This document shows positions 9,048 through 37,700 of a stretch of 64,000 nt of DNA, piece by piece (positions within the stretch are counted from its first letter, which is position 1; every line of letters begins with the position of its first letter). Under the pieces are notes generated by a model. The model worked only from the letters and a program-made list of their open reading frames with translations. It was not told where the DNA came from and made no database searches. Position numbers and translations under genes: made by a program. The stretch comes from Candidatus Cybelea sp. (lineage in GTDB: Bacteria; Acidobacteriota; Terriglobia; Acidiferrales; UBA7541), in contig DATKHV010000099.1 in NCBI GenBank assembly GCA_035510055.1, positions 29,826 to 93,825 of the forward strand, given 5' to 3'.

Positions 9048-10817
9048 CTACTGAACCCACTGGTCCCAATGAATGCCCCTAGCGTCCTTCCACGAGACAC
9101 TTGAAGAGTAATGCAGATGCCGCGCGAAGACCTGCGGATTTATCTGCGATAGCCAATCCGCAGCCGCTGACGGCCGGACGTCCTTCGTTGCGTCCGTCGA
9201 AAGATTCGTGATTTGTGCCGCCGCACTCTTCTTCGCTTCCGCCACCCAGCGCGCTTTCACCGCTTGCCAATCGACTTTTTGAAAATCGAAATAGCTCAGT
9301 CCATTGACATTTTCCGGGAAAGCCGCGCGTCCCGTCCGAAACTGCGGCACGGTGCCAAGGCCCGCGGCCGCGGAAGCGTGCGCACGATTCGCAAGCACTT
9401 CACGAAGCGTCTCGACGCCATTGGCGCCCACCAGCATGTCCGGTGTGACCGCCACATTAAAGAAATTCCATTGCGCCGTTCCCGCGCTTCCTTCTTTTCC
9501 TTCCAGCGAAATCTTCAAGAACGTCACATCTCCTTCATTCCGCTCCGCCGTCAATTGCTCGCCCAGCACCGTCCGCATTAGTTTCAGGGTCTCCGCTTTT
9601 TTGCGCACTCCAAAAAAGTAAACCTGCTTTCCCATCTCTAGCGCGGGACTCGTCTGCATCGAAGCAAACTCTCCGCTCAGTAATCCCAAGGCCTCCGGCA
9701 CGGGCATTCCCAGCTTTTGTTGCGCCATCAGATCAAGCAAACCCACGCCCCCTTGCTGCGTCTGCGGAAACGCGGCGCCGGCCACACGTTCGACGGTAGC
9801 GTAGATGCCCAGTAAATCAAGCTGCATGGAATTGTACGAAACGGCTTCCGCCGGCACGAAAGCCAGGGACGCAGGCCTCGGCTGCCCCGCGGACCAAATG
9901 TCAAAGAGCGTTCCGCCTGAAGCATCGCCCAATATCGCCGCTTGCACGTGCGTTTTCGCTCCTTCGAACGTGACGCGCCCGCTCACAGAATGCACCGCGT
10001 CCAGCTTCGCCGCTTCCAGCAATGGACTGACCTCGAGCGGTCCAGCTTTCGAATCGGCCGCAAGGTTTTTCAGATCCGGCACAGCCAGAAAAAATTCCAG
10101 CGAGCCGCTCTCCAAGTTCGCCTTCGCCTCCTGATACGCCGCGGATTGCCCCAGCGTCGCCCCGCCGCTAGCTTTCCCATCGAGCCGCCCCAATAAATCT
10201 TCCATCACTGTTCGCTCACCCGCGCTGACGGCGTACTTCCCATGCTCCGCCCAATACGTGGCGCCGCCCTTGCTTTCCGACTTCACAACTTGCACGCCTC
10301 CGATGCTGACTTGCGAAAGCACTGGCGCTTCCTTCTCTTCCGCCCGCATACGCAGTATCGCTTTCGCAAGCAACAACTCTTTCCCGGTGCGGTCATACAC
10401 AAAAAACATCCCGTTCCACGCCGGCCTTTTTGTATCCGCTGAAACAGCCCCGTTCGAAAGCATTCGTCTCACAGGTTCGCTCACGTATCCCAGCGTGAAC
10501 GAGTTTTCCAGCAGTCCCGCAAATTCCTTCACTTGTTCCGGCGTCAATTTCGCCGCCGCCGGTTTTTCTTCCGACGAACTGAGCATCCCCGCCACGATTG
10601 CCGACCGCACCGGCGCAAAATCCGCATCGTCCCACAGCGCCGCCAGCGCGTTTGCCTTTCTTGCTTCCCCGCCTGGCATACCGTGCCAGGTCACGTAGAA
10701 CAGCGTCCGCGCTGACATCTGCGCCGGCCCCAGCGGAGCTTGCGCTCGCGCCGCACCCGCCCACACCAGCGCCGCCATCGGCAATAGCCACGCCATTCGA
10801 AGTCTCAATGCTTTCAT
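9048..10817 (-). CDS. Hypothetical secreted protein (589 aa)
   Basis: Long ORF. The internal ATG at 10817 gives MKALRLRMAWLLPMAALVWAGAARAQAP (a signal peptide) and is preceded by GGAG. No family recognised. Probably co-transcribed with the VWA-like gene. Confidence 0.6.
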   Translation of the reverse strand: MKALRLRMAWLLPMAALVWAGAARAQAPLGPAQMSARTLFYVTWHGMPGGEARKANALAALWDDADFAPVRSAIVAGMLSSSEEKPAAAKLTPEQVKEFAGLLENSFTLGYVSEPVRRMLSNGAVSADTKRPAWNGMFFVYDRTGKELLLAKAILRMRAEEKEAPVLSQVSIGGVQVVKSESKGGATYWAEHGKYAVSAGERTVMEDLLGRLDGKASGGATLGQSAAYQEAKANLESGSLEFFLAVPDLKNLAADSKAGPLEVSPLLEAAKLDAVHSVSGRVTFEGAKTHVQAAILGDASGGTLFDIWSAGQPRPASLAFVPAEAVSYNSMQLDLLGIYATVERVAGAAFPQTQQGGVGLLDLMAQQKLGMPVPEALGLLSGEFASMQTSPALEMGKQVYFFGVRKKAETLKLMRTVLGEQLTAERNEGDVTFLKISLEGKEGSAGTAQWNFFNVAVTPDMLVGANGVETLREVLANRAHASAAAGLGTVPQFRTGRAAFPENVNGLSYFDFQKVDWQAVKARWVAEAKKSAAAQITNLSTDATKDVRPSAAADWLSQINPQVFARHLHYSSSVSWKDARGIHWDQWVQ

Positions 10818-10991
10818 CAGAAGTCTCCAATGACAACGCGCTAAGGAAAGGGCCAACTTTTCCATGCTAGCGCGCCTCCCCAAACGGCAGAAGCCCTGTC
10901 CCGCTCTGAGTTTCCAGAACGCCGAACAGGGCTTCACCTCGGTCCAGCAAAATAGCGATATTTATCCAGCAAAATTGCGGTATTTAAATCT

Positions 10992-11909
10992 CTACGGTTT
11001 TGTCGGAGTAGCCGCTGGCGGAGGTGCCGCTGCCGCGGGAGCGGCCGCCGCCGGAGCCACCGCCGCCCCGCCTTCTTTCGGCGTCGCCAGGTATCCGGTA
11101 ATCTGATTCTTCCCCACGTCAAACACCACGATCTCGTAAGGCGCCATCCTCGAGCTCCCCTTCACGTAAAACTGCACCGGCTCGCCGGAAGTCTTGTCCT
11201 TCTTTTCTATGGTCTTGTCGTCTGCGATCACCGTCACCGTGTACTTCGCTTTTTTCGGATCTGTCTTGTTCAGCGACATCTGCACCGGCCCCACGCGCTG
11301 CGGCGTCTTGGATTTTTGCAGCGTGAACTCGTAATAGTTCCGGTCGCCGCGCCTCTTCAAGTCTTCCAAGTCGTCGCGGTTGTGCGCGATCAGTCCGCTC
11401 ATCACGTTCATGTCGCCCAGGCTGCGCTCCAGTTTGCCTTTTGTCGTTTCCAGGTCGCTCTTCGTCGCTTCAATGTCTTTCTTCGCCCCGCCCACTTCAG
11501 AGGCCACCGCGCCGATTTTTTCGTCGTTCTCTTTCTGCGCCTGGCTCAGCTGCGCCGTCAACTTCTGGTCCGCTTCCTGCTGCTCCTTGACGATCGTTTC
11601 CGCGCGGCTCTTGGCCCGCGCGATCTCTGATTGCGTCAAGCCCATTCGCTGCGCGGTAATTTCCATCTGGCTCTTCAAATCCGCGATGCGCGAATTGGCC
11701 TGGTCCAGTTGCGCCGTCACAATCTTGTTCTGCTCTTGCTGCTTCGCCAAGTCCTGGCTCAGCCGCGTCTCGGTGGTGTACCCCACAAAGCCCAGCACCG
11801 CCAGCGCGGCAATCACTACGCCAAATAGCACCGCGATCCACCGCGGCGTCCCCGTCGTTTCGTAGCGATACGATTCCTCCGGGCTCGGTATGTTTGGAGA
11901 AATGCTCAT
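10992..11909 (-). CDS. Membrane-anchored coiled-coil protein with Ala/Pro-rich tail
   Basis: 305-aa ORF with a GGAGGAAG RBS before the ATG at 11909. It has one TM helix (WIAVLFGVVIAALAVLGFVGY), about 130 aa of heptad-rich Q/K/E sequence, a globular C-terminal region and the tail AAVAPAAAAPAAAAPPPAATPTKP. Confidence 0.65.
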   Translation of the reverse strand: MSISPNIPSPEESYRYETTGTPRWIAVLFGVVIAALAVLGFVGYTTETRLSQDLAKQQEQNKIVTAQLDQANSRIADLKSQMEITAQRMGLTQSEIARAKSRAETIVKEQQEADQKLTAQLSQAQKENDEKIGAVASEVGGAKKDIEATKSDLETTKGKLERSLGDMNVMSGLIAHNRDDLEDLKRRGDRNYYEFTLQKSKTPQRVGPVQMSLNKTDPKKAKYTVTVIADDKTIEKKDKTSGEPVQFYVKGSSRMAPYEIVVFDVGKNQITGYLATPKEGGAAVAPAAAAPAAAAPPPAATPTKP

Positions 11910-13903: not shown

Positions 13904-15298
13904 TTAATCCGCAACGGCTGATTGTTCCGCGGTGAAAAGCTTTTTCGCTTCGTTGCGGCGACGCGACTCCAACGTGACGCGCACTCCGTGCCGCGGCCGC
14001 AGCGTAATCGATGCCAGCGGCACCACCGGATGACCCGCCACCAGCCGCAGTCGAAACTTACGCGCGATCGTCGCCAGAACCAGCGTGGCCTCCATCAGCG
14101 CGAACGCATTTCCAATGCACTGGCGCGGCCCGCCGCCAAACGGAAAATAAGCAAACCGCGGCAGCCGTTTGATCAGATCATTCTCCCAACGCTCCGGCAG
14201 GAATTCTTCCGGCGCTTCGTACCAGCGCGGGTCGCGATGCACCACCCATTGCGCCATGGCGACCCCCATGCCCTTGGTAACCGGGTACCCCGCAATTTCG
14301 TGATCCTCAACCACCAGCCGCGCGAGTCCCCAGGCCGGCGGATAAAGCCGCAGCGATTCCGAAATGACGTGCCCGGTGTAAACAAGTTTGGGCAAATCGT
14401 CGAAAGTGGGGGGGCGGTCGCCGAGGACGGCGTGCAATTCCGCATGCAGCTTTGCTTCGGCAGCGGGATTCTGCCCGAGTAGCCACCACGTCCAGGAAAG
14501 CGTGCTCGCAGTTGTTTCGTGTCCCGCCAAGAATAAAGTTATCATCTCGTCGCGAAGCTGGCGGTCGGTCATTTTCGAACCGTCTTCGTCTTGCGCGTGG
14601 AGAAGCATCGACAGCAAATCGCCTGCATCGCGCCCGGAAGCGCGGCGCTCGGCAATAATGCGGTAAAGGATTTTTTCGATTTGCGCCACTTCGCGCTTTA
14701 CGCGCAAATTCGCCGGCGTGGGCAGCCAATGCGGGACAAAAATGGTGCGGCGGAAATTCGCGCCGATTTCGAGGAGCAGCTCCAGAGATTTGCCCACGTC
14801 TTGCGCGTCGCGTTCGACGTCCGCATCGAACAGCGTTTTTCCCACGATCTGCAGCGTCAAGCGCATCATTTCCCGATGGGCGTCGCGTTCTTCTCCGTTT
14901 TTCCATTCCTCCAGCAAGCGTTCCGCATACTCGACCATCGTCTCTGCGTAGGAAGCGATGCGCGCGCGGTGAAATGCGGGTTGCGCGAGGCGCCGCTGGC
15001 GCAGCCAGAAATCGCCTTCGCTGGTCAGCAAACCTTCGCCGAAGACGTGGCGATTCGCGCGAAGCACGCGGCCCTTGATGTAGCGGCGCGCATTGATAAC
15101 CAGCACCTCTTCGATCAGATCCGGATGATTAATGAAAATCGTTTTGAAATTCAGAACGCGCAAGCCGGCGATATCGCCATAGTCGCGCGCGATTCTGGAG
15201 AAATATTCAAGCGGTTTGTTGTTGAGCGGGCCCAGCGACCAGCGTCCGAGCCCTTCAGCAGGACCGGCGGGGAATTTTCTGTGGCTCGAGCTCCACAT
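13904..15298 (-). CDS. Cytochrome P450
   Basis: 464-aa ORF. It has the heme-thiolate loop [14 protein letters not shown], the I-helix [11 protein letters not shown], and ExxR (SESLRLYPP). Confidence 0.9.
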
Positions 15299-15346
15299 AC
15301 AGCAATGCTAAGCCCGCGTTCGGATGGCGTCAACGCGCGTAAATTC

Positions 15347-15928
15347 TTAATCGCAGGAGGTCTCGCGGGCGCGAAGCGCGCGGATCCGAAAGCCGCCGCG
15401 GCGGAGATCGACCGTCACCTTTGAAAATCCCGCGGCCGTCAATCTTGCCAAGGCGGACGCCGGCATCACCGGCACAAAGGTGCTCTTGATGTGCCCGATT
15501 CGATGCAACCATCCATCTGGAATTTCAAACGCAAGGAAGACGCCTCCAGGCCGAAGCACGCGCCAAATTTCCGCAAAAGCGCGATCTTGCAGTTCGCTCG
15601 AACGCAAATGATGGAGCATCAAGATGGCAATGGCCGAGCAGAAAGTCCCATCGGCAAACGGCAGAGTAGCGGCATCGCCCTGAATCACCGTCACACCCGT
15701 GCAATGGACGCGCACAGCCAGCTTGGCCGCAAATGCGTGGTCGTACTCCAGACTCGTCACGCGGCCAGCGAGGCGCCCCAACTCCTCCGTGGCGGCTCCC
15801 AATCCGGCACCCAGCTCCAGAATGTGCTCGCCTAGCTGGGAGCCCTTTGAAATCCAGGGCAAGACTTGCCGCCACGTCAACCATCGCCAAAGCCGCGTCC
15901 CGCAAAACCATGTTTCATAGGCGTTCAT
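15347..15928 (-). CDS. Class I SAM-dependent methyltransferase
   Basis: 193-aa ORF. Motif I is ILELGAGLGAATEEL, and there is a downstream VLRPGGVFLAFE. It lies 48 nt upstream of the P450 gene on the same strand. Confidence 0.75.
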   Translation of the reverse strand: MNAYETWFCGTRLWRWLTWRQVLPWISKGSQLGEHILELGAGLGAATEELGRLAGRVTSLEYDHAFAAKLAVRVHCTGVTVIQGDAATLPFADGTFCSAIAILMLHHLRSSELQDRAFAEIWRVLRPGGVFLAFEIPDGWLHRIGHIKSTFVPVMPASALARLTAAGFSKVTVDLRRGGFRIRALRARETSCD

Positions 15929-16124: not shown

Positions 16125-17483
16125 CTAAAGCATTGTCCGGATGCGGCGGAGAGCGGAAGCGAATTGGTCGGCGTTATAGGAGGAGGGATTTTCGAGTTGC
16201 TGGAAGAGAGCGTTGATGGCGGCGCGGACTTCGGAGGCGTTGGCGGGCTTGGCGTCTTTGCCGTAGGCGATGTAGAGCGAATCCATGGCCATGGCGGCTT
16301 GCTCGGCGGCGCGCTCGTCGGCCAGGGCAATATTTTCGGCATCATCGGGGATGCGTTGCAGCAAGCGCAGAGCTACGGCCTGATCGTATTGCATGGTTGC
16401 CAACCGCTCGGCAATTCGCTGAGCCAAAGGTGCGGCGGCTGAGGCGGCGGCGGCCACCACGGTGCGATCCGGATTCAGCTTGCTCATTTCGTCGGAAACG
16501 GAGAGCAACTGACGATCCAGATCCATGGCACTCGCGGAGTCAATCTGTTTTGCGAGCAGACGGAAAACCACATAGCGGGAGCTGTTCCAGGCCGGATCGC
16601 CCGGGCGACGGTCGATGTAGGCGTGCTCTTGCCGCCAACTCTCTTTGGCCGGGCCTAGCGCGTGATGGCACGCGAAACAGGAAAGCTCGGAATATTCCGG
16701 CCAAACATCTTTTTTGTCGAAGCGCTCATTTCTCGCGCGCCAGGTCAAGCGGTCCATCGCCGCGCGCAATTGCACGGCTTGGCCCGCGCTCCACTCGCGC
16801 ACTCCGACCCATGCGGCATCCTCGACTGGTTTGCCCGGATCTGACTCGCGCGGCGATTTCCAGTGACGCGGCATTACCGCAGAAAACGAGTCCAGTTCAA
16901 AATAAAGATCCGGATGCCCGGCAGCGAGCATCTCGTGATCCACAAATTTATTTTTCGTTCCGAGATGGCATTCGAGACATTTTTCCGTGCGGTGAATCAC
17001 ATCTCGAGTGTCGTGCATTCCCAAGGCGACGGATTTTTCATGCGCCCAGGTTCTTGTGGCGTGCGGTCCTAGCCAAGCCGATGCCGGACCGTGGCAGTTT
17101 TCGCAGGACACGCCTTCGGAAATTTCGAACGCCCGACCGCGCTGCTCAACTCGGGGATTCAGCGCGTGGCACGCCAAGCACTTCGGCGCTTCTTCTGCTT
17201 TCGCTCCGAGCTTCAAGATCCGGGCCATGCGCTCGCCGACATCGCCCAATAACGCTTGGTAAGCGCGGCTGTGTTTGTCCTGGATGATCCAGGTGGAATA
17301 TTCATTCTGCAAAATACGGCTGTCGGCGATGGGCTTCACGCTTCCGTGACAACTCGTCGCCGCACACGAACCCGGTCCGATGTATTGGATGGGTTCATTT
17401 TGCGCCGAAAGAAGCGCCGGAAACGTCATGAACCATGCGCAAGCAAGCACGCGGAGCAAACAGGAGTTTAAGGCGATGCGCAT
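16125..17483 (-). CDS. Secreted multiheme cytochrome c (4 CxxCH plus 1 CxxxxCH) with helical C-terminal domain
   Basis: The track ORF starts at 17585. The ATG at 17483 (MRIALNSCLLRVLACAWFMTFPALLSAQ, a signal peptide) is preferred. Heme motifs are CAATSCH (CX4CH), CLACH, CENCH, CLECH and CFACH. Confidence 0.85.
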   Translation of the reverse strand: MRIALNSCLLRVLACAWFMTFPALLSAQNEPIQYIGPGSCAATSCHGSVKPIADSRILQNEYSTWIIQDKHSRAYQALLGDVGERMARILKLGAKAEEAPKCLACHALNPRVEQRGRAFEISEGVSCENCHGPASAWLGPHATRTWAHEKSVALGMHDTRDVIHRTEKCLECHLGTKNKFVDHEMLAAGHPDLYFELDSFSAVMPRHWKSPRESDPGKPVEDAAWVGVREWSAGQAVQLRAAMDRLTWRARNERFDKKDVWPEYSELSCFACHHALGPAKESWRQEHAYIDRRPGDPAWNSSRYVVFRLLAKQIDSASAMDLDRQLLSVSDEMSKLNPDRTVVAAAASAAAPLAQRIAERLATMQYDQAVALRLLQRIPDDAENIALADERAAEQAAMAMDSLYIAYGKDAKPANASEVRAAINALFQQLENPSSYNADQFASALRRIRTML

Positions 17484-17593
17484 TCGGTGTGCCGGTGAGT
17501 CTGCTTGCTTATATCGTGTGCGGCGCGCGGAAGTCAACGGGCCGCGTTGTCTTTTTCGCGTCGCGTCGCAAAAAGGCAAACGCATTCTATTTA

Positions 17594-17608
17594 CAGCAGA
17601 CTCTGCTG
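17594..17608. promoter_or_regulatory. 7-bp perfect inverted repeat in the divergent cytochrome/nuoEF-like intergenic region
   Basis: cagcaga-c-tctgctg at 17594-17608, between the divergent starts at 17483 (-) and 17667/17700 (+). Candidate operator. No known consensus recognised. Confidence 0.3.
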
Positions 17609-17666
17609 CCAGTAGTATGCAGAGGACTCAGCACGCCACTTTGCGCCGCGCATCCTTTCCGAGAAA

Positions 17667-19418
17667 TTGCCCGGCGCCTTTCGCGCGAGACGGGGCGCCG
17701 TGATCTTCGACGACCTTCGGGCCATTCAGCTTCGCTACGGCTTCCTGCCCAAAGCGGAACTCCAAGGGCTTTCACAACGCACCCAGACCCCGCTCTATCA
17801 AATCCACGGCGTGGCAAGTTTCTATCCACATTTTCATCTCGTGCCACCGTCCAAGGTGGAGATTCGCGTTTGCGCCGATATGAGCTGCCATCTGAACGGC
17901 GCTTGTGAATTGCGTGCCGATCTTGAACGACGATTTGCGAGTGCTCAGCCGGATGATGTGCAGATTCGTGATGTCTCTTGCCTCGGCCGTTGCGATCACG
18001 CTCCGGCGATTTCCATCAACGACCAGATCTTCACGGACGTGACCGCGGTGCATGCCGAGCAGCTCGCGCGCAGCGCCATGCGCGGAGATGACATTCACGA
18101 GCCACATCCCGCGCAGGCACGCATCGTTTGCAAAGCTGATCCCTATGGGGAAGATGAAAAGTACGGCGTGGTGCGCAAGCTGGTTCAATCCAAAAATTGG
18201 GGCGGCGTTCTCGCACAACTCAAAGCCGCTGAACTGAAAGGCCTGGGCGGCGCGGGATTTCCCACGAGCGTGAAGTGGGAGCTCGTCCGCAAACAGCCCG
18301 ATCCGGTGAAATACATCGTGTGCAACGCCGACGAAAGCGAGCCGGGGACCATCAAGGACCGCTTCATCCTGACCAATTTGCCGCACTTGGTGGTCGAAGG
18401 GATGATCATCGCGGGCCTGGTTACGGGGGCGAAACGCGGCATCCTCTATATCCGGCACGAATATCATCTTCAAGAAGAGATTCTTGGCGAAGAGATTCGG
18501 CGGTGTTATCGCTCGGGGCTTCTTGGAAAAAAAATCCTCGGCAGCGATTTCGACTGCGACCTGGAAGTTTTTGTGAGTCCAGGCGGCTACATCTGCGGAG
18601 AAGAAAGCGCGCTGATCGAAGCCCTTGAAGGACATCGCGCGGAGCCGAGGAATAAGCCGCCTTTCCCCGGGCAAATCGGGCTGTGGCAAAAGCCTACGGT
18701 CATTAACAACGTGGAGACGTTTATTAACGTTCCGCAAATTCTCGCTCGCGGGAGCGAATGGTTTGTGGCCCAAGGCACCGGCGGCTCGCACGGATTGAAA
18801 TTCGTGGGGGTGAGCGGGCAGGTTGAACGGCCGGGCATTTTCGAAGTCGCCATGGGCGTGCCCGTGCGTGAGGTCATTTTCGATCACGCGGGCGGGGTTC
18901 GTGGAGGCCGTCAACTGAAAGCTTTTGCGCCCTCCGGGCCATCGTCCGGCTATCTTCCCGCTTCGATGGTCGATGTGCGTTTGGATTTCAAGGCGCTGGC
19001 CGAAGCTGGCTCGATGCTGGGCTCCGGCGCCATTGTCGTCTGCGATGACACCACTTGCATGCTGGACATGGCACTGAACGCGGTGCGCTTCTACCGCAAC
19101 GAATCCTGCGGAAAATGTGTACCGTGCAGGGTTGGGTCACAAAAAGTGGCGGACCTGCTGGCGCGCTGGACGCAAGGCGGCTTGAGCGAATCGCAATATC
19201 GTGCCGATCTCGGGCTGCTTGACGAACTTTCGCAAGCCCTGAGCCTCACTTCCATTTGCGGCCTCGGCCAGATCCTGCCTGCGCCGATTCAGTCGGTGCT
19301 GAAGCATTTTCGCACCGAAATCGATGCGCACGTTTTAAAGGGCCAGTGTCCCAGCGGCATTTGCTTTACCGCGGCATCGCGCGCCGGGGAAGCCCAGCGA
19401 GTTGGGATTCGCCCCTAG
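17667..19418 (+). CDS. Fused NuoE-like [2Fe-2S] / NuoF-like FMN- and NADH-binding subunit (diaphorase-type, HoxF/FdsB-like)
   Basis: 583-aa ORF with a TTG start in the track. An in-frame GTG at 17700 is an alternative start. The NuoE-type cysteines are CADMSCHLNG ... CLGRCDHAP. The NuoF FMN/NADH region is GLGGAGFPTSVKWE, and the N3 cluster motif is ESCGKCVPCRVG. Confidence 0.9.
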   Translation: MPGAFRARRGAVIFDDLRAIQLRYGFLPKAELQGLSQRTQTPLYQIHGVASFYPHFHLVPPSKVEIRVCADMSCHLNGACELRADLERRFASAQPDDVQIRDVSCLGRCDHAPAISINDQIFTDVTAVHAEQLARSAMRGDDIHEPHPAQARIVCKADPYGEDEKYGVVRKLVQSKNWGGVLAQLKAAELKGLGGAGFPTSVKWELVRKQPDPVKYIVCNADESEPGTIKDRFILTNLPHLVVEGMIIAGLVTGAKRGILYIRHEYHLQEEILGEEIRRCYRSGLLGKKILGSDFDCDLEVFVSPGGYICGEESALIEALEGHRAEPRNKPPFPGQIGLWQKPTVINNVETFINVPQILARGSEWFVAQGTGGSHGLKFVGVSGQVERPGIFEVAMGVPVREVIFDHAGGVRGGRQLKAFAPSGPSSGYLPASMVDVRLDFKALAEAGSMLGSGAIVVCDDTTCMLDMALNAVRFYRNESCGKCVPCRVGSQKVADLLARWTQGGLSESQYRADLGLLDELSQALSLTSICGLGQILPAPIQSVLKHFRTEIDAHVLKGQCPSGICFTAASRAGEAQRVGIRP

Positions 19419-19419
19419 T

Positions 19420-21591
19420 ATGACGACTGCCGGCACACCTGCGGGGTTCGTGGACATCACACTGGACGGAAAACCCGTGCGAGTGCCGGCGGGGACGAGC
19501 GTGTTTGACGCCGCGCGCATGAATGGGATCAACATTCCTACGCTTTGCCACCTGCAGAGCCAGACGCCCGTGGGCGTCTGCCGCTTGTGTGTTGTGGACA
19601 CCGGGGCGCGCGTTTTGTCTGCATCCTGCGTCCGCCCGGTCGAGCCGGGCATGAAAGTCGTCAGCAATTCAGAAAAAGTACTGGCAGCGCGCAAAACCTT
19701 GCTGGAACTGATGATGAGCGATCATCCTTCCCCTTGCGCGCGCCAGCAGAATTCCGGCGACTGCGAATTGGAGACACTCGCAAAGGCGGCGGGCGCTTTG
19801 CCGCCACGCTTTAGAAAACACACCGTCGCGCGCGGTAAAGATGATTCTTCCCTGGCTATCGCCGTGGATCACGACGCTTGCATTCTCTGTGACAGGTGCA
19901 TCCGCGGCTGCGATGAGATCAAAGACAATTTCGTCCTCGGCCGCATGGGCAAAGGTTATTCCGCGGGGATTGCGTTCGATCTCAATTCGCCGATGGGCGA
20001 TTCCACTTGCATCTCGTGCGGGGAGTGCATGGTTTCTTGTCCGACGGGCGCACTCACCAACAAGAGTGTCGTCGGCACGGCGATTGCGTCGGGTCCGGAC
20101 GCGCAAGGATTAGAAGCCGAGGATCTTTTGCAGATTCCCGTTTTCAAGGGGGTATCCGGGACATTTCTCGCGCTGAATCGCGGGGCGATCGTCAAACGGC
20201 GGTTCAGCAAAGGCGAAATCATCTGCCGCGAAGGACAATTCGGTTCGACAGCGTTCTACATTGTCGAAGGCCGGGCCAAGGTTTCGATTTCCACTCCGAT
20301 CGCGCACGTCAAGACGCAGGGCGGCGCAAAAGGATTTTTCAAGCGGCTGACCAGCACACTCGTCGCGCGAGAAGAAGATAGGCGCGAAGAGGAAGCGCGC
20401 GACAGGACGATTCCGATCGATGCACCGGTGGATCTTGCTTACGGCAACCCTGTCGCTGAACTTGAACCGGGCGACCTCTTCGGCGAAATGACTTGCATGA
20501 ATTTTTATCCGCGTTCGGCGACGGTCATCGCCGGCTCGGAGGTTGTGGCGTTTGAGATGCTGCGCAATGTTCTCGACATCATGTTGAAGAACAAGACTTT
20601 CAGAGCGCAACTGGACCAGACTTATCGCCGCCGGGCTCTCGAGAATCACCTTCGCGGCGTGCCTATGTTCGCGGATCTTTCGCAGGAATTCATCGCGCAC
20701 CTGAAGGAAAGCGTGGAGTTGCAGCGCTTCGGGCCCGGCCAGGTGATCGTTCAGCAGGGCGCGGTGGCGGACAGTTTCTATCTGGTGCGAATCGGTTTCG
20801 TGAAAGTTTCGGAAAATTATCCAGGTGGCGAACTGGTGCTGGCCTATCTTTCGCGCGGCGATTATTTCGGGGAAATAGGGCTTCTCGGCGGCGGTGTTCG
20901 CACGGCGACGTGCACGGCTCTCGATCACGTTGAGCTCGTGCGAATCTCCGGCGAGGATTTCCGCGACATGGTTGCGCGGTTTCCCAGCGTGAGAAGCGGC
21001 CTGGAAGCCGCGGCCGCCGAGCGGCGCGCCGCAAACCAGCAGCGCTTGCAGATGCTACACGACGTTCCCATCGATCAATTTCTCTCGCAAGGATTGATGG
21101 AAGCGCAGAGTCTGCTGATTCTGGATTTGCAGAATTGCACGCGTTGTGACGCTTGCGTGAATGCTTGCGCCGACGCGCACGAAGGGGTCACGCGCTTGGT
21201 GCGCGATGGATTGCGCTTCGATCAATATCTGGTGGCCACCAGTTGCCGGCAGTGCCGCGATCCGCTGTGCATGGTGGGCTGCCCGGTCGGCGCGATCCGC
21301 AGGAGAAACTCGCTGGAAGTCATCATTGAGGATTGGTGCATTGGCTGCGGGCTTTGCGCGCAAAATTGTCCTTACGGCAATATCAATTTGCATCCGTTTG
21401 AAGTGCTGGTGGACGATCCCGACCGCGTTGGACGAAAAAAAGCTGTCATTAAGCAAAAGGCGACCTCTTGCGATCTTTGCACGCACTTGCAAGAGCCGAG
21501 CTGCGTTTACGCTTGCCCGCACGACGCCGCGCATCGTGTTGACCCACGCACATTTTTCGCCGCCATGCTGGAACGGGCCCCATCGAAATGA
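19420..21591 (+). CDS. Fe-S protein: NuoG/HoxU-like N-terminus + two cyclic-nucleotide-binding domains + DmsB/NrfC-like 4Fe-4S ferredoxin domain
   Basis: ATG at 19420, one nt after the upstream stop. N-terminal 2Fe-2S motif CHLQSQTPVGVCRLCVV, then HPSPCARQQNSGDCELE, CILCDRCIRGC and CISCGECMVSCP. Two cNMP-binding-like domains follow (GEIICREGQFGSTAFYIVEGRAKV...GDLFGEM, and GQVIVQQGAVADSFYLVRIGFVKV...GDYFGEIGLL...RTATCTA). C-terminal clusters are CTRCDACVNAC, CRQCRDPLCMVGCP, CIGCGLCAQNCP and CDLCTH...CVYACP. Confidence 0.85.
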   Translation: MTTAGTPAGFVDITLDGKPVRVPAGTSVFDAARMNGINIPTLCHLQSQTPVGVCRLCVVDTGARVLSASCVRPVEPGMKVVSNSEKVLAARKTLLELMMSDHPSPCARQQNSGDCELETLAKAAGALPPRFRKHTVARGKDDSSLAIAVDHDACILCDRCIRGCDEIKDNFVLGRMGKGYSAGIAFDLNSPMGDSTCISCGECMVSCPTGALTNKSVVGTAIASGPDAQGLEAEDLLQIPVFKGVSGTFLALNRGAIVKRRFSKGEIICREGQFGSTAFYIVEGRAKVSISTPIAHVKTQGGAKGFFKRLTSTLVAREEDRREEEARDRTIPIDAPVDLAYGNPVAELEPGDLFGEMTCMNFYPRSATVIAGSEVVAFEMLRNVLDIMLKNKTFRAQLDQTYRRRALENHLRGVPMFADLSQEFIAHLKESVELQRFGPGQVIVQQGAVADSFYLVRIGFVKVSENYPGGELVLAYLSRGDYFGEIGLLGGGVRTATCTALDHVELVRISGEDFRDMVARFPSVRSGLEAAAAERRAANQQRLQMLHDVPIDQFLSQGLMEAQSLLILDLQNCTRCDACVNACADAHEGVTRLVRDGLRFDQYLVATSCRQCRDPLCMVGCPVGAIRRRNSLEVIIEDWCIGCGLCAQNCPYGNINLHPFEVLVDDPDRVGRKKAVIKQKATSCDLCTHLQEPSCVYACPHDAAHRVDPRTFFAAMLERAPSK

Positions 21592-22568
21592 GAATGGACA
21601 AAACGCAACTCCGCTGGGCTTGCGCTTCGCTTGGAATCTTGACGATTTGTGGCGTCGTGTACGGTGCTTACGCGCTCGAATCTCCGCTGGGTCCGCTTGG
21701 CGGCAGTACTATCGGAGTCGCTTTCGGCATCATGGGCTTCGGCTTCATGTTATTTGCGGCGCTTTTGGGCGCGCGGAAACGCGTTCCTACGTGGCGCGTG
21801 GGACGCGCGCAAGCGTGGATGCGTGGGCACCTGTGGCTCGGCTTTCTGGCCCTGCCGATGATTCTTTTTCACGGCGGATTTCATTTCGGGGGGACGCTTA
21901 CGAGCGTCTTGATGTGGCTGCTGATGATTACGGTGTTCAGCGGCGTATTTGGCGCGGTGCTGCAACATTACATTCCGCGCCTGATGACCGTGGACGTGCC
22001 GCTCGAAACGATTTACGACGAGATCGGTCGCGTCCGAACGCTGCTACGCGAGGAAGCCGATCGCGCGATGGAATCACTCTGCGGGAATTTGGGGCTGTCG
22101 AAACATTCGAACGAAGAAGGCCTTCGAGCGGGTGGGTTCACGGCGTTGCGGACAATCGCCGCTTCAGCGGTTCCGCTGCGCACTTCTGGGGCGGTTAGCG
22201 CGGGCGCGAGTGCGGGTGTTGCTGCGGCTGCCGAAATTAGTTTGCTGAGTGAAGAAGTGAGTGCGCGGCTCGGACGGTTTTACTTGAAGGAGATGCGTCC
22301 GTTTCTGGAGCAGCCGGGAAAACGCGGCCAGCGTCTGGGCGATAACGGGAAAGCGGGCAGCGCGTTCGCGGGGCTGCGCACACTATTGCCTGCCGCAGCG
22401 CACGCTACGCTTTTTGACCTTGAAGACATTTGTGACGAAGCGCGGCAGCTGGCACGTCAGGAACGTTTGCAGCACTGGCTGCATGGGTGGCTGCTGCTGC
22501 ACATCCCGCTTTCGCTGACATTGGTTTTGCTTGGCGCTGTACACGCGGTGATGGCTCTACACTATTAA
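21588..22568 (+). CDS. Integral membrane protein with conserved-looking His in TM helices (possible b-type heme membrane anchor)
   Basis: 326-aa ORF whose start overlaps the upstream stop (ATGA). It has four N-terminal hydrophobic helices, about 170 aa of soluble insert and one C-terminal helix. His residues lie in or next to the helices (RGHLWLGFLALPMILFHGGFHFGG, LQHYIP, HWLHGWLLLHIPLSL...GAVHAVMALHY). No family recognised. Confidence 0.6.
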   Translation: MRMDKTQLRWACASLGILTICGVVYGAYALESPLGPLGGSTIGVAFGIMGFGFMLFAALLGARKRVPTWRVGRAQAWMRGHLWLGFLALPMILFHGGFHFGGTLTSVLMWLLMITVFSGVFGAVLQHYIPRLMTVDVPLETIYDEIGRVRTLLREEADRAMESLCGNLGLSKHSNEEGLRAGGFTALRTIAASAVPLRTSGAVSAGASAGVAAAAEISLLSEEVSARLGRFYLKEMRPFLEQPGKRGQRLGDNGKAGSAFAGLRTLLPAAAHATLFDLEDICDEARQLARQERLQHWLHGWLLLHIPLSLTLVLLGAVHAVMALHY

Positions 22569-22582
22569 CACGAGAAAAAAAC

Positions 22583-24040
22583 GTGGCTCGCACCCGCACG
22601 ACTAAAAAACTGGCCCAGCGCATCGACCTCAACTATTTTAAGAAGCCGACGCCGCTGAAGCGCGCGAAATTCTGGCTTAGTCTCGTGCTGCCTTTGCTCG
22701 CAGTGATTTGGATTTCCTGGCGCAGCGTTTCTGATGATCCTCGCGTTTATTCAAGCGGCCGCATGAGCAAAGCACATGCGGTGCTGGAAAAGGATTGTGG
22801 TGCTTGCCACTTGCGAACCGCTGGAGCATTTTCCGCGAAAGCGGGCGACGCCGCTTGCCTCGACTGTCACGACGGCCCCCTTCATCATGCGGAACAGGCT
22901 TATGCCCCGAACTGCACGACTTGCCACATGGAACATCGTGGAAGAATCAGTTTAGTGGCCACAAGCAACGAAAGCTGCGGGCAGTGTCATGCGCGGCCGG
23001 TCACAAGATCCGGTAACAAGGCGCTCTGGGACCGCTTTGATAGTTTCGAACACGGCCACCCGGAGTTCACCCCCTTGCGAACCGTTGCAGGCATCGCGCC
23101 GAGCGATCCCGGCACGATCAAACTGAATCATGCCATCCATATGAAGCCCATTCGACGTCGGCCGAATGGGCCCAACGTTCAGCTCGAGTGTGGCAACTGC
23201 CACCGTCCGACATCTGCGGCCATGGACATGACCTACTCGGATGCGAAGTACCGCGCTGCAGCCGTCAGCTACAAAGATAGCGACGAGTATTTAGCTGGGC
23301 ACGCCGAAAGTCTGAAGCCTCCGCGTTCAGAAACCGGGCGCGAGTGGATGGCACCCGTGAAATTCGCGAATGCTTGCGCTGGCTGCCATTTGCTGACGTT
23401 TGACAAGCGCTTCGACTTTGGCGTTCCGCACGACAAGCCGGAGGTTATACGCGAATTTCTGGCGAGAACATTTCGTGAATACATTTCCGCGCACGCCAGC
23501 GAATTGCGCGTTCCGCGCGAGCCGAGCCGCGACCTTACGGGTAAGCCGGTGCCCCCGGAAGTTCGCACACTTACTCCCCCACAATGGGTGATGGAGCGTA
23601 CGGTGGAGGCAGAAGATCTGCTCTGGCGAAAAACCTGCAAGCAGTGTCACACCCTGATATCTCCCGCAAAAAGCCGGCGCGGAAAAACCGAACTATTGAG
23701 TGCCGGGGCGAGCGACGCGGACAAGCTCCCCGGCACCTCGGCTGGATTGCCAAACGTTGCGCAAGCGAACACCACATTGCGTTGGATGCCGCATGCGAAA
23801 TTTGATCACGGGGCGCATGAAGGATTTACTTGCGTGAGTTGTCACGCCCAAGCGCTGACCAGCACGGAGTCGAGCGACATCTTGCTGCCGGGGATGGCGA
23901 CTTGCAAAACGTGCCATGCGCCGGGGCCGGAGCATGCAGAGTCGCGCTGCTTCGAGTGCCATACGTATCACGATTGGTCGAGGCGGAAGGAAGTCACGCC
24001 AAAATTTACGTTGCCAGGACTTGCCACCGGCGGCCGCTGA
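22583..24040 (+). CDS. Membrane-anchored decaheme cytochrome c
   Basis: The track ORF starts at 22487, inside the previous gene. The GTG at 22583 (VARTRTTKKLAQ...) is preferred, 15 nt after the upstream stop. One N-terminal TM helix (FWLSLVLPLLAVIWISW). Ten CxxCH motifs: CGACH, CLDCH, CTTCH, CGQCH, CGNCH, CAGCH, CKQCH, CVSCH, CKTCH and CFECH. Confidence 0.85.
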   Translation: MARTRTTKKLAQRIDLNYFKKPTPLKRAKFWLSLVLPLLAVIWISWRSVSDDPRVYSSGRMSKAHAVLEKDCGACHLRTAGAFSAKAGDAACLDCHDGPLHHAEQAYAPNCTTCHMEHRGRISLVATSNESCGQCHARPVTRSGNKALWDRFDSFEHGHPEFTPLRTVAGIAPSDPGTIKLNHAIHMKPIRRRPNGPNVQLECGNCHRPTSAAMDMTYSDAKYRAAAVSYKDSDEYLAGHAESLKPPRSETGREWMAPVKFANACAGCHLLTFDKRFDFGVPHDKPEVIREFLARTFREYISAHASELRVPREPSRDLTGKPVPPEVRTLTPPQWVMERTVEAEDLLWRKTCKQCHTLISPAKSRRGKTELLSAGASDADKLPGTSAGLPNVAQANTTLRWMPHAKFDHGAHEGFTCVSCHAQALTSTESSDILLPGMATCKTCHAPGPEHAESRCFECHTYHDWSRRKEVTPKFTLPGLATGGR

Positions 24041-34753: not shown

Positions 34754-37700
34754 TCAGTAATAAGAATGCAACCAAGCCTGGATGCGCGAAAACAGGGAAG
34801 TGAGCGTCGAAGCAGAAGAGGAAACGGGCGTGGGGCGAGGTTTTTCAGCTCTCTCAACGGCCTCGTCAGTAACCGCGTAAAGCTGGCCGGTAGCCGAGTG
34901 GATGTACAAGCTGCGCATTTCATTGCGATTGAGCGGCCGAGCACCGCGGCGGCCGAACACGGCGAGCTGGTTGCCGGATTCATCGAGGGCGCGGTCTCGG
35001 TCGATGCCTTTCGAGATCGCCAGCGCCGGGCCGTGGGTGTGCGCCGTGGCAATCAGTTTTGGCGTGGGGCGCGGGCTGAATCCGGAAAAGTGCGCGGCGT
35101 CATCCCACGGCGAAACGATCTGCCAAATGCGCAGGCCATACACTCCGTCGGCTACAAACGCGAAAGCACTCCCCGCCACCATTCCGATTTTCACGTCGTA
35201 TGCGTCGTTCAACTGTCCGTTCCCGCCAAACATCTGGTCGTAAAGCGGCTTCTCTGGATTTTCAACGTCCACGACGGACACTCCAAATCTTCCGTTCGCG
35301 ACGTAGGCGTAGGTCCGCGCTACGTAAACATTTCTTGCATCTCCGAGCGAAACTCGTCCCGTCTCTGTCATCTTTGGATGCGCCAGATCCGTTACCTCCA
35401 GCGTCTTCAACCCGTAGCGGTCCACCACAAACGCATACCGGAACTGCACCGAAATCCCGCGCGGATCATCCAGGTCGGGGGCGCCGATGGTCGCGGTAAC
35501 TTTGGGCGCTAGGGGCTTATCGAGGTCGACGACGACGAGCGCTTTGTCGGTAAGGATGTAAGCAAATGTTCCGGCGATGGCGATACGGCGCGCGCCCGTG
35601 AGTGCTCCGCCTGGATTGAACACCAGGGCGCGCTTCAGGAAATTGTTGGCCGGATTGCCGTCCAAAAGCGTGCCTACGCCAGGACTTTTCGATTTCAGAT
35701 TGGGATCGCCAATGATGACCAGGCCTTCTTCTTTGTCGGCAACGTAAAGGAAGCCGTAGAGAAGATGAATGGGCTGCTCCTCGTTTTCCGGTAATTGCTG
35801 CCGCAAAGGATCGATCCCCAGGGTCGTTGGTGAGGCAACTGCCAGCGCATTTTTGGTGGGAACGTAGAAGCGTTGGCCGATGGGCGAGACCGGCGCGGTC
35901 GTGATTTTCTCAGAGAAGCTTTTGTTGTCGATGTTGGCGATGTCATAAACGCGCAGTCCGCCGCGCCCGAGAGCCGCGTAGGCGTATTCCCCGCGGGCTT
36001 GGATGTCGAGGACGTTGCCGGAATGTTCCGCGGCGGCGCTGAGTTCGCGGCCGTGCTGTAAGAATCTTTTGTAATTGTCGGGATACGCGATGCGCTGAAG
36101 GTCGCTGCCATAAATGGCTTCCGGCTCGTCGTGCTCGGCAACAGCGACAGCTTCCAATCCTTGCTTGCCGGTCGCGACGAAAACATATCGTCCTATGAAA
36201 TTCATGAAGTTGGTGCCTAGCAGCAAGAGCTGGGCCATCCATGCATTGTTGTCATTGTTTGCGGAAACGTGGCAATCGCTACATTGTTTGGTTTCTTTGG
36301 CGCGCACCGTATGTGGCACAAACGTCGAGAACGCCTGTCCGGACAAACCAGGAGCCGAAATCGTCTGCTGCGTGTAGTAGAGCCAATCACGATTAGCGTT
36401 TTGCGAACTCACCAGCACGGCGCACGAAGAGCGCGCGGGTGCGATGCGATGGCCGGTGACCGTGCCATCCACTCCCAGCATGTAGATGTCGTCCCGCAGA
36501 ACCTGAAAGTTGTAGCTGGTGTAATTTTTCGTGAGCAAGCCTTCGTTGTGCAGCATGGGCTTGCGCGCGTTGGCGGTCATTTGCAGATGGCAGCCGAAGC
36601 AGGTAGGCGTCCACGAAGTGTGGCAGGAGTAGCAAGTCATGCTGTTATTGGCGTGTGCCAAAGGAGCGTCGTCGCTCGGCATTTGCCAAGACACACTGCC
36701 ATCCTTGTTCATCAATTTCGCCCGCCGAGATTTCTCGTTGAAATGCAGGTTGCCGGGCGTGATGCTGTCGATGGTCTGAACGATTTCCCACTCTTTGTTT
36801 TCTTCCGACATGGAACGCTGAAAAATCTTGTTGTCCCGCCACTCGAACCGCCGCAATCCCCACGGTGTGCGTAGCGCGTCCAGGTGCCGGCCGCCTTCCG
36901 GTGCTGTCGGGCCGGACGTTACTAAAGCGGCTTTTTTGCGAATCGTGCCGTGGCAATCGATGCAGTCGATTTCGACTGCCGCGCGTGGTTCGCCGTAAAT
37001 TTTCCCATCGCCGTGATTGTCCTGCGCGAAGTGGCAATCGTTGCACTGCATTCCTTTTTCTAGATGAATGTCCGCCAGGTGTACGGCTTTGCCGAAGCGC
37101 TCCGGATCATCGAAGGCGATCTGCTTTCCATCCTTATCCAGCCAATTCCCTTTGCGGTCGTGATTGAACACGGCGCGGAAAATCCAGCCGTGCCCGTGAA
37201 AATCGGCGAACTGCGTAGTCTTCAACTGCTTGTTGAATTCAGGGCTGCCCACACTTTCCAGGAATTTCTCGTCGCTCCAGAGGCCGCGAACGGCCGCTCC
37301 CTCCGGATTGCGTTCGAAAGATTGATAGCGCTGCTCTTCAGTCGGATTGCGCTGCTCCTTCGGATACATCATGTCGCCATCGATTTCGTTGTCCCACCAG
37401 GTGAGACCGAAATACGTCGTAACCATGTTTGTGCCCGGATGAATGTGGCAGATCATGCACTGGCTCGAAGGAATGGAGCGCGTCAAAATGTGCTTGATGG
37501 GATGGCCGGACTCGTTCTTGCGAATCGTCGGATCGCAAGAAGCACTGAAACCGGAGTGGCCAAAGCGCGCGTACGCCCCCGAATGCGCGGGATCGCGATC
37601 ATTTGCGTAAATAACATGGCACGCGGTGCATCCGCTGCCGCGATAGTCGCCGGGATGATCGTTCGTGCCGGGAAGCGACAGGACGGGGTCGAGCAAGCGT

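Follow-up and report, generated by a model that had tools for sequence, protein, structure and literature searches.

Introduction

Where would the electrons of NADH go in an operon that joins a NuoE/NuoF-type flavoprotein to an inner-membrane protein and multiheme cytochromes c, with no hydrogenase, formate dehydrogenase or complex I membrane arm beside it? The question is raised by five genes, here named cytA, EF, G, mem and cytB, in a 64,000-nucleotide stretch of an acidobacterial contig (Candidatus Cybelea sp., assembly GCA_035510055.1, contig DATKHV010000099.1, positions 29,826 to 93,825); this whole stretch is referred to as the window. A soil-metagenome contig was near-identical to the window, and close relatives carried the labels Candidatus Acidoferrum or Acidoferrales (Acidobacteriota). 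The order Candidatus Acidoferrales is among the most abundant soil lineages; a potential for Fe(III) cycling has also been ascribed to it, on weaker grounds. No unambiguous cytoplasmic electron donor was apparent in the earlier genome surveys; new here is the predicted entry of NADH via NuoEF/HoxU.

A first-pass annotation, made from the sequence alone, had proposed a conduit between NAD(H) and periplasmic multiheme cytochromes, working outward or in reverse, and had not recognised the arrangement. Its core can in fact be recognised as PCC4 (He et al., 2017; PMC5566968), or ptd in a later preprint (10.1101/2023.11.21.568154), both of them bioinformatic descriptions. We favor the reading that the locus is the NADH-fed Acidoferrales variant of the PCC4/Ptd family and carries electrons outward from NADH to acceptors in the periplasm or outside the cell, probably without quinone and possibly under the control of cyclic AMP or cyclic GMP (cAMP, cGMP); we give it an even chance. 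The stronger claim, that soil Acidobacteria abundantly carry a quinone-independent NADH:extracellular-acceptor oxidoreductase which reaches across both membranes and is switched directly by a cyclic nucleotide, is tentative and on balance doubtful.

Results

Layout of the locus

The five genes, their positions and the junctions between them were found as first annotated (Table 1). EF and G are separated by 1 nucleotide (nt), the stop codon of G overlaps the start codon of mem (-4 nt), and mem and cytB are 14 nt apart, a spacing from which translational coupling of the four genes is predicted. The domain scan covered about 36 open reading frames (ORFs) of the window and left out the remaining ORFs of at least 110 amino acids (aa), which are mostly small. 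Among the scanned ORFs no hydrogenase, no formate dehydrogenase, no NuoB/C/D/I and no membrane-arm NuoA/H/J-N was found, in line with what the first pass had stated. Only three ORFs of the 64-kb window contain two or more CxxCH motifs, namely cytA, cytB and a distant gene for a cytochrome with an LVIVD domain; a tetraheme cytochrome, which is a PCC4/Ptd component, is absent from this set. No cyclase gene was found in the window.

Table 1. Features of the locus, with positions counted from the first nucleotide of the window.
Feature	Position	Strand	Description
cytA	16125..17483	-	Secreted pentaheme cytochrome c, PtdA/PCC4-pentaheme-like, with a C-terminal non-heme domain
cytA/EF intergenic region	17484..17666		Divergent, 183 bp; promoters in both directions presumed by position only
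EF	17667..19418	+	Fused NuoE/NuoF flavoprotein, predicted cytoplasmic; TTG start, alternative GTG at 17700
G	19420..21591	+	Three-module Fe-S/cyclic-nucleotide-binding (CNB) protein
G, N-terminal module (residues 1-225)	19420..20094	+	HoxU/NuoG-N-terminal-like; one [2Fe-2S] and two [4Fe-4S] motifs, degenerate His-ligated motif
G, middle module (residues ~226-560)	20095..21099	+	Two CNB domains, the first split by an insertion
G, C-terminal module (residues ~561-723)	21100..21591	+	HycB/HydN-like polyferredoxin, four Cys groups
mem	21588..22568	+	Inner-membrane protein with five transmembrane (TM) helices, PCC4-IMP/PtdF type, predicted diheme cytochrome b
cytB	22583..24040	+	Decaheme cytochrome c, GTG start; single N-terminal TM anchor, heme domain predicted periplasmic
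LVIVD cytochrome	34754..38596	-	Secreted, ~1280 aa; nine CxxCH and one Cx3-4CH; C-terminal LVIVD beta-propeller; tentative part
Barrel-like protein	38976..41219	-	747 aa; signal-peptide-like N-terminus, CarboxypepD_reg domain, C-terminal ...KFTF; tentative part

The NADH-oxidising input

EF had been described as a fused NuoE/NuoF-like subunit with intact flavin mononucleotide (FMN)/NADH and N3 motifs, and its Pfam domains and readable motifs bear this out. Besides an SLBB domain, 2Fe-2S_thioredx (PF01257), Complex1_51K (PF01512) and NADH_4Fe-4S (PF10589) were detected, each of these three above its cutoff, and GLGGAGFPT, CNADESEPGT and ESCGKCVPCR can be read in the translation. EF matched TIGR01959 with an E-value of 1.3e-137, yet remained under the equivalog cutoff for true NuoF; its best solved relatives were HydB, HoxF and the fused formate dehydrogenase beta subunit 7e5z_B, and it shares 41% identity with the EF protein of a distant locus (L083). 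Neither a Tat nor a Sec signal can be seen at the start of the EF and G translations, consistent with the cytoplasmic location that the first pass had assumed for the flavin and Fe-S subunits.

Three roles known for such modules were considered and rejected: a complex I fragment, since no other Nuo genes are present among the scanned ORFs of the window; a hydrogenase or formate dehydrogenase diaphorase, since a catalytic partner is missing from an arrangement that is kept across 80 genomes; and flavin-based electron bifurcation, since the additional C-terminal clusters of bifurcating HydB are not present in EF. EF and the N-terminal part of G share with HoxFU, FdsBG/FdsA and HydBC/HydA the cofactor set of NuoE, NuoF and the NuoG N-terminus (best matches 7q4v, 6tg9, 7e5z and 5xf9), but differ from these enzymes by the lack of a hydrogenase or molybdopterin partner, by a degenerate His motif, and by the CNB-linked polyferredoxin and the membrane and periplasmic hemes that accompany them.

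An Fe-S subunit with tandem CNB domains

Residues 1-225 of G align with the N-termini of HydA1, FdsA and HoxU and contain a 2Fe-2S motif as well as two CxxCxxCxxxC(P) motifs, in agreement with the NuoG/HoxU-like N-terminus of the first-pass annotation. The His-ligated cluster does not fit this picture: the NuoG/HoxU motif H-x3-C-x2-C-x5-C reads H-x3-C-x8-C in G, the middle Cys being replaced, and is wholly absent from the G protein of L083 (43% identical to that of the window). Because the motif is degenerate in Acidoferrales and lost in L083, this cluster probably lies outside the electron path, and the module probably carries one cluster fewer than HoxU. The degenerate motif, at residues ~101-116 (DHPSPCARQQNSGDCELE), is shared by all Acidoferrales homologues.

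Overlooked in the first pass were the tandem CNB domains, which occupy ~340 residues between the HoxU-like N-terminus and the HycB-like C-terminus. PF00027 (cNMP_binding) matched G in three stretches with 123 bits against a cutoff of 27.5 (E = 3.7e-36). The phosphate-binding cassettes, FGEM...PRSAT in domain 1 and FGEI...VRTAT in domain 2, align with those of PKG and PKA, and domain 2 aligns with the cGMP-binding domain of PKG including the 'RTA' motif. Between Acidobacteriota and Planctomycetota, G355, E356, R365, S366 and A367 of the first cassette and G484, E485 and A496 of the second are invariant and R494 is near-invariant, i.e. the ligand-contact residues are constant across phyla despite an overall identity of ~40%. 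Along their full length, planctomycete CNB-Fer4 proteins align with residues 225-723 of G at ~40% identity. The presence of CNB domains within the Fe-S subunit suggests that it is probably a regulated wire and not a plain one.

G gave several Fer4 family matches, including a weak one to Fer4_11, and its C-terminal module contains 16 Cys in four groups, all of them invariant in the homologue alignment. This pattern implies four [4Fe-4S] clusters, the number given at first pass, where the domain had been called DmsB/NrfC-like. The latter assignment has to be replaced by HycB/HydN-like: the module aligned over its length with HycB3 (7qv7_A, E = 2e-15), HycB4 and HycB (7z0s_B), cytoplasmic proteins that act as wires of four [4Fe-4S] clusters, and G matched the NCBIfam HydN profile with an E-value of 5.9e-17, under the equivalog cutoff. 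The AlphaFold2 (AF2) model of G was poor (predicted local distance difference test, pLDDT, of 52, with the Fe-S modules unmodelled), so that gating by the CNB domains is inferred only.

A predicted diheme membrane protein

The first pass had noted a 5-helix His-rich membrane protein, and mem indeed has five helices and 11 His, with the N-terminus inside and the C-terminus outside according to the positive-inside rule. No Pfam or NCBIfam family could be assigned to it. Its motifs are W77-x3-H81-x13-H95 in TM3, S118-G-x-x-G122 in TM4 and W301-x3-H305-x13-H319 in TM5, the same set as in the inner-membrane protein of PCC3/PCC4. Among 44 diverse homologues W77, H81, H95, G119, Q126, P130 and H305 are invariant and H299, W301 and H319 near-invariant, all W, H and G residues of the motifs being invariant or at least 90% conserved. 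The AF2 model (pLDDT 88.8, predicted template modelling score 0.81) consists of four N-terminal TM helices, a helical soluble domain of ~130-160 residues and a long helix at the end. By the positive-inside rule the soluble TM4-TM5 domain is cytoplasmic, as are the N-terminus and the TM2-TM3 loop. The His pairs on TM3 and TM5 lie at matching depth, H81/H305 close to the cytoplasmic side of the membrane and H95/H319 close to its periplasmic side, as expected of two stacked bis-His hemes, predicted to be heme b.

Scanned singly, the 44 homologues weakly matched DUF4405 (18/44), Ferric_reduct (17/44) and Ni_hydr_CYTB (13/44), all three of them members of the diheme cytochrome b clan. The mem protein of the window reached 15.5 bits against PF01794 (cutoff 28), and the best of the 17 weak homologue matches had an E-value of 2.8e-4. 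A Foldseek search of the model against the PDB returned no known membrane fold (best E = 0.05, to TorS sensor helices), and the diheme assignment therefore draws on the motifs and the weak profile matches. With these hallmarks of a diheme transmembrane carrier, mem appears to be an electron-transfer protein, as the conduit first proposed would require.

A protein of this kind could alternatively be a quinone-reactive cytochrome b, like HydC/FdnI or the cytochrome b of the bc1 complex, and couple the system to the quinone pool. Ni_hydr_CYTB, which was weakly matched by the 13 homologues, is a quinone-reactive family, Q126 and P130 in TM4 are invariant with no role assigned to them, and the inner-membrane protein of PCC3/PCC4 was proposed to be a quinone-active cytochrome b (PMC5566968). 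However, no quinone-site motif was identified in mem, and cytB carries its own anchor and directly follows mem in all readable contexts, which suggests a direct handoff from b- to c-type hemes. A role of cytB as a quinol dehydrogenase of the NapC/NirT type was rejected, as it gave no Pfam NapC/NirT match and only 18.5 bits with NCBIfam NrfH (cutoff 134 bits). Quinone coupling is thus considered unlikely, and a bypass of the quinone pool plausible.

The mem family comprises more than 3,400 close sequences and 2,315 clusters at 50% identity, and its annotated members are all called 'hypothetical'. Its cytoplasmic TM4-TM5 insert varies from ~130 to ~650 residues (proteins of 280-880 aa), and no Pfam domain was detected in the insert of homologues with 500-880 aa. 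The long planctomycete inserts (L084, 8001..10481; L088, 12285..14672) co-occur with an Fe-S protein without the HoxU part and are found without NuoEF. Tblastn searches with mem and a planctomycete G-like protein against plasmids gave no match.

Periplasmic cytochromes

Both cytochromes correspond to their first description, cytB as a signal-anchored cytochrome with ten CxxCH motifs and cytA as a divergently transcribed secreted pentaheme cytochrome. In cytB the one N-terminal TM segment spans residues 28-50. In five out of five readable distant contexts a cytB homologue is encoded directly downstream of mem, each with exactly ten CxxCH. The N-terminus of cytA is hydrophobic and signal-peptide-like and is followed by five heme motifs, four CxxCH and one N-terminal CxxxxCH; the protein matched PF13435 (Cytochrome_C554, E = 9e-11) and, weakly, the structures of cytochrome c554 (1bvb) and of the pentaheme c552 from T. 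tepidum (5ze8). Five distant loci encode orthologues (E = 1e-34 to 1e-67), of which four retain the set of four CxxCH and one Cx4CH. Neither CxxCK nor another recognised catalytic-heme signature was found in cytA. Matches to TIGR03507/03508 and to MtrC domain II/IV were negligible and far under the cutoffs.

Candidate outer-membrane and surface components

No porin is encoded within the operon, the nearest candidate being the 747-aa barrel-like protein (Table 1). Its relatives elsewhere adjoin the core: it is 43% identical (E = 8e-136) to a protein that in the distant locus L089 is encoded between the cytochromes and an LVIVD cytochrome, and 48% identical to the product of the gene directly downstream of G in L083/L091. 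The LVIVD cytochrome of the window is 50% identical to the one that closes the L089 cluster; an LVIVD protein is encoded ~7 kb from the core in L091, and the 8-kb flanks of at least 15 of the 80 Acidoferrales loci show at their edge, 6-8 kb away, the 3' end of an LVIVD cytochrome gene. The two genes are probably the outer-membrane and surface components of the same pathway, with the 747-aa protein as candidate barrel and a presumed surface location of the LVIVD cytochrome.

These data bear on whether electrons leave the cell at all. They might instead end in the periplasm, on cytA or on an unlinked reductase or detoxifier (e.g. of nitrite, hydroxylamine, NO or peroxide), with no extracellular transfer. 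MsrQ of the FRD family, which together with the cytosolic reductase Fre feeds periplasmic MsrP, is a precedent for such an end-point, and in the window both the barrel-like and the LVIVD gene lie outside the operon, 11-17 kb off. PtdA shares its COG with NrfA, and a role in nitrogen cycling has been raised (10.1101/2023.11.21.568154). On the other side stand the missing catalytic-heme signature of cytA and the closeness of the two genes to the core elsewhere: two distant lineages, independently of each other, have barrel-like and LVIVD genes beside the core or within ~7 kb of it, and at least 15 Acidoferrales genomes have the LVIVD gene at a distance of 6-8 kb. We regard a purely periplasmic end-point as improbable, to the same degree as coupling to quinone.

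The gene that divergently adjoins the barrel-like gene (41429..43057, +) encodes an HbpS-like protein of a heme-binding/degrading family. An HbpS-like domain protein was also seen near the core in L091 (2837..5515) and may be a recurrent accessory gene.

Relation to PCC4/Ptd and to other systems

PCC4 clusters were described as encoding a porin, periplasmic cytochromes with 4, 5 and 10 hemes, and an inner-membrane protein of ~300 aa, whose five TM helices bear W-x3-H-x13-H on TM3 and again on TM5 and SGxxG on TM4; in subgroup II (marine Proteobacteria and Planctomycetes) an Fe-S gene lies upstream of the membrane protein (PMC5566968). The clusters were found in Zetaproteobacteria and Hyphomicrobium and hypothesised to be a conduit for Fe(II) oxidation into the quinone pool (PMC5566968). 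The 2024 preprint named a cluster of 'completely unknown' function ptdABCDEFG, in which PtdE has a cyclic-nucleotide-binding domain, PtdF is ferric-reductase-like and PtdC is an FAD/NAD(P) oxidoreductase (10.1101/2023.11.21.568154); this is evidently the same cluster as PCC4.

By its motifs and architecture the core of the window (Fe-S/CNB protein, 5-TM protein, decaheme and pentaheme) is assigned to this family. The link to named PCC4/Ptd proteins (e.g. MBT5131322-24 and SMF72598-608) was made via architecture, motifs and planctomycete relatives. Common to the present system and PCC4 subgroup II are the motif set of mem, the upstream Fe-S gene, the decaheme and pentaheme cytochromes, Planctomycetes among the hosts and a prediction from genomes only. 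In contrast to PCC4, the operon described here lacks the tetraheme and the porin and adds a NuoE/F gene and a HoxU-like fusion to the Fe-S protein; its host is a soil acidobacterium and not a marine or Fe(II)-oxidising proteobacterium, and flow through PCC4 was assumed to be inward to quinone. With ptd it shares the order PtdE-PtdF-PtdG, equivalent to G-mem-cytB, and an NAD(P)-linked oxidoreductase in the cluster, which is PtdC there and NuoEF/HoxU here, whereas the porin PtdB and the tetraheme PtdD are absent from the operon. The PtdA pentaheme is related to c552 of T. tepidum (5ZE8), and cytA weakly so. For PtdE two 4Fe-4S clusters were given in the preprint, compared to four predicted from the Cys pattern of G. 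No later functional work on PCC4 or ptd and no description of the form fused to NuoEF/HoxU was found in the literature searched.

The Mtr/Pcc conduits (MtrAB, OmaB-OmbB-OmcB) differ from the present system in that only negligible matches, far under the cutoffs, pointed to an MtrA/DmsE-family decaheme or an MtrB-type porin here. With NOX and ferric-reductase systems such as MsrQ-Fre it would share a cytoplasmic NAD(P)H flavoprotein, two bis-His b-hemes, an acceptor on the outer side, and a non-pumping, depolarising mode of action. Unlike NOX, FRE and MsrQ, however, mem has five and not six TM helices and stays below the PF01794 threshold; the donor is NuoEF/HoxU/polyferredoxin instead of an FNR-like protein, and the acceptors would be c-hemes instead of O2, Fe(III) chelates or MsrP. 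Tmc, Hmc and cytochrome-linked Rnf use a heme-b subunit in the membrane to connect cytoplasmic Fe-S proteins with periplasmic multiheme cytochromes, and quinone is not obligatory. Those complexes are built from unrelated families (DsrM/DsrK/CCG, NrfD, Rnf) and possess neither a NuoF-type NADH flavoprotein nor CNB domains.

Conservation and distant contexts

One genome per GTDB species was scanned starting from ten mem-family sequences. Relatives of mem were found at 586 loci, the closest 80 of which, all Acidoferrales-type, were used to read gene orders. The order EF-G-mem-cytB was kept in every one of these 80 with enough flank, so the arrangement is not due to chance; cytA is the divergent partner of the operon in 64/82 loci. 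The synteny on which the first-pass annotation had made its proposal depend thus extends over 80 Acidoferrales genomes, and in distant lineages including Planctomycetota the same genes co-occur in other orders. Identity to the proteins of the window decreases in the order G > EF > cytA > mem > cytB. Over the 80 loci G is 81-92% and cytB 53-73% identical, i.e. the cytoplasmic side is constrained and the periplasmic side fast-evolving.

Synteny across phyla was drawn from individually inspected distant loci. In L083 and L091 (mem 35% identical) a divergent cytA is followed by mem-cytB-EF-G, and G carries the HoxU-like fusion. The loci from Planctomycetota, one of them from the cultured Thalassoroseus pseudoceratinae, encode a short G with two CNB domains and the polyferredoxin but neither the HoxU part nor NuoEF; a long mem of 795-826 aa, cytB and two pentahemes, one of them cytA-like, complete the set. 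Further cultured carriers of the short form are Sulfidibacter corallicola, Tistlia consotensis and Roseibium aggregatum. L089 contiguously encodes a G-like C-terminus overlapping mem, followed by cytB, two pentahemes, the barrel-like protein and the LVIVD cytochrome. Judged from these gene orders, the invariant core appears to be mem, cytB and a pentaheme, usually accompanied by a CNB-polyferredoxin, with the NADH module as a lineage-specific addition. The planctomycete loci without this module indicate that NADH is not the universal donor of the family, and the reductant input appears to be interchangeable, with NuoEF/HoxU here and in L083 and PtdC in the marine ptd operons.

In L087 (Isosphaerales, GCA_044450785.1) cytA, mem and cytB are followed by a cyclase-domain gene, which is a second, independent link of the system to cyclic nucleotides, seen once. 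The gene (9897..11738) encodes a 613-aa protein with GAF-like and guanylate/adenylate cyclase domains and occupies the position expected for the CNB/Fe-S protein.

Such links raise the possibility of a signalling device in which the hemes report the periplasmic or extracellular redox state to the Fe-S/CNB protein as part of a cyclic-nucleotide circuit, with no bulk electron flux. It would fit that conservation within the G/PtdE family is highest in the CNB domains, that G is the most conserved protein of the operon and that the Isosphaerales cyclase-domain gene directly follows mem-cytB. Nevertheless, this adjacency is a single occurrence, no DNA-binding, kinase or cyclase output domain is fused to G, and ~11 Fe-S clusters, FMN, two b-hemes and at least 15 c-hemes would be a large outlay for sensing. 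Flux is also indicated by the dedicated NADH dehydrogenase module, and a pure sensor is very improbable.

Contigs from bins labelled Verrucomicrobiia, Betaproteobacteria, Methylomirabilota, Chthoniobacterales, Dongiaceae, Baltobacteraceae, Eisenbacteria, Limnocylindrales and Dormiibacterota also carry the cluster (L016, L028, L032, L033, L037, L052, L053, L055, L065, L078, L081). Their mem proteins are 65-72% identical to that of the window and several share its flanks; they are probably mis-binned Acidoferrales DNA rather than cases of horizontal transfer.

Proposed electron route and its direction

In the outward route that we favor, NADH would reduce FMN on the fused NuoE/F protein, and electrons would pass via the N3 cluster to the HoxU-like clusters of G and on to its C-terminal four-cluster polyferredoxin. 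From there they would cross the membrane through the cytoplasmic-side heme b (His81/His305) and the periplasmic-side heme b (His95/His319) of mem to reach the membrane-anchored decaheme cytB and then the soluble pentaheme cytA, which would probably deliver them through the barrel-like protein and the surface LVIVD cytochrome to extracellular Fe(III), humics or similar acceptors. Since NuoEF/HoxU is coupled or fused to the Fe-S subunit, the cytoplasmic reductant would be linked directly to periplasmic or surface cytochromes and not (only) to the quinone pool. Flow in this direction would regenerate NAD+ and dissipate the membrane potential without a proton pump; because no energy would be conserved, regulation would be desirable, and the CNB tandem between the two Fe-S modules of G may gate electron flow on cAMP or cGMP. 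Cofactor occupancy, subunit contacts, direction, quinone independence, gating and terminal acceptor are inferred throughout.

Electrons run downhill from NADH (-320 mV) to c-hemes, and their outward movement is favored by the membrane potential; both argue for the outward direction. The reverse, in which Fe(II), Mn(II) or reduced humics would feed the reduction of cytoplasmic NAD+ by NuoEF working backwards, was left open in the first pass. NuoEF/HoxFU-type modules are reversible in other enzymes, which counts for inward flow. Against it, c-type hemes and Fe(II) donors lie far above -320 mV, and inward electrons would oppose the membrane potential. The family also includes the PCC4 clusters of Zetaproteobacteria and Hyphomicrobium with their hypothesised role in Fe(II) oxidation (PMC5566968), but the present carriers are Acidoferrales resembling soil heterotrophs, and the potential proposed for these is one of Fe(III) reduction. 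No module for coupling to the proton motive force or for bifurcation was found, EF being without the extra C-terminal clusters of HydB, and without an energy input the reduction of NAD+ is thermodynamically unlikely. Of the conduit first proposed, the outward half remains the best reading and the inward half is quite unlikely.

Several observations weigh against the outward route as drawn. The barrel-like and LVIVD genes are located 11-17 kb downstream of the operon on the opposite strand, and the barrel is a presumed one. The planctomycete versions have no NADH module in cis. The heme b of mem is predicted with no similar solved structure at hand and from Pfam matches under the gathering scores, and mem may still possess a quinone site. 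Within G the path is uncertain, as a ligand of the His-ligated cluster is lost and the whole motif is gone in L083, and the model with a pLDDT of 52 yields neither an electron-transfer distance between the Fe-S modules nor support for gating by the CNB domains. He et al. proposed that electrons run the other way, from the oxidation of Fe(II) to the quinone pool (PMC5566968). In the literature no biochemical, genetic or expression work on any member of the family was found.

If true, the outward route would give Gram-negative bacteria a new means of discharging electrons outside the cell, with a bearing on the anoxic survival of soil heterotrophs and on the cycling of iron and humics. It may also be the first electron-transfer chain gated by a second messenger, and it would give a function to the PCC4/Ptd family of Zetaproteobacteria, Nitrospirales, Planctomycetota and marine Alphaproteobacteria.

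Surroundings of the operon

Promoter and terminator scans of the locus yielded nothing exceeding the shuffled expectation. In the cytA-EF intergenic region one sigma-70-like match per strand was located at 17584-17618, the total number of matches being no higher than expected by chance. The neighbours of the operon are unrelated to respiration and encode an M50 protease, a P450, a methyltransferase, an aldo-keto reductase, a FUSC protein and sugar kinases. The P450 and the small methyltransferase upstream of cytA (13904..15928, -) adjoin the cluster in 35/82 and 51/82 loci, respectively (L003-L082).

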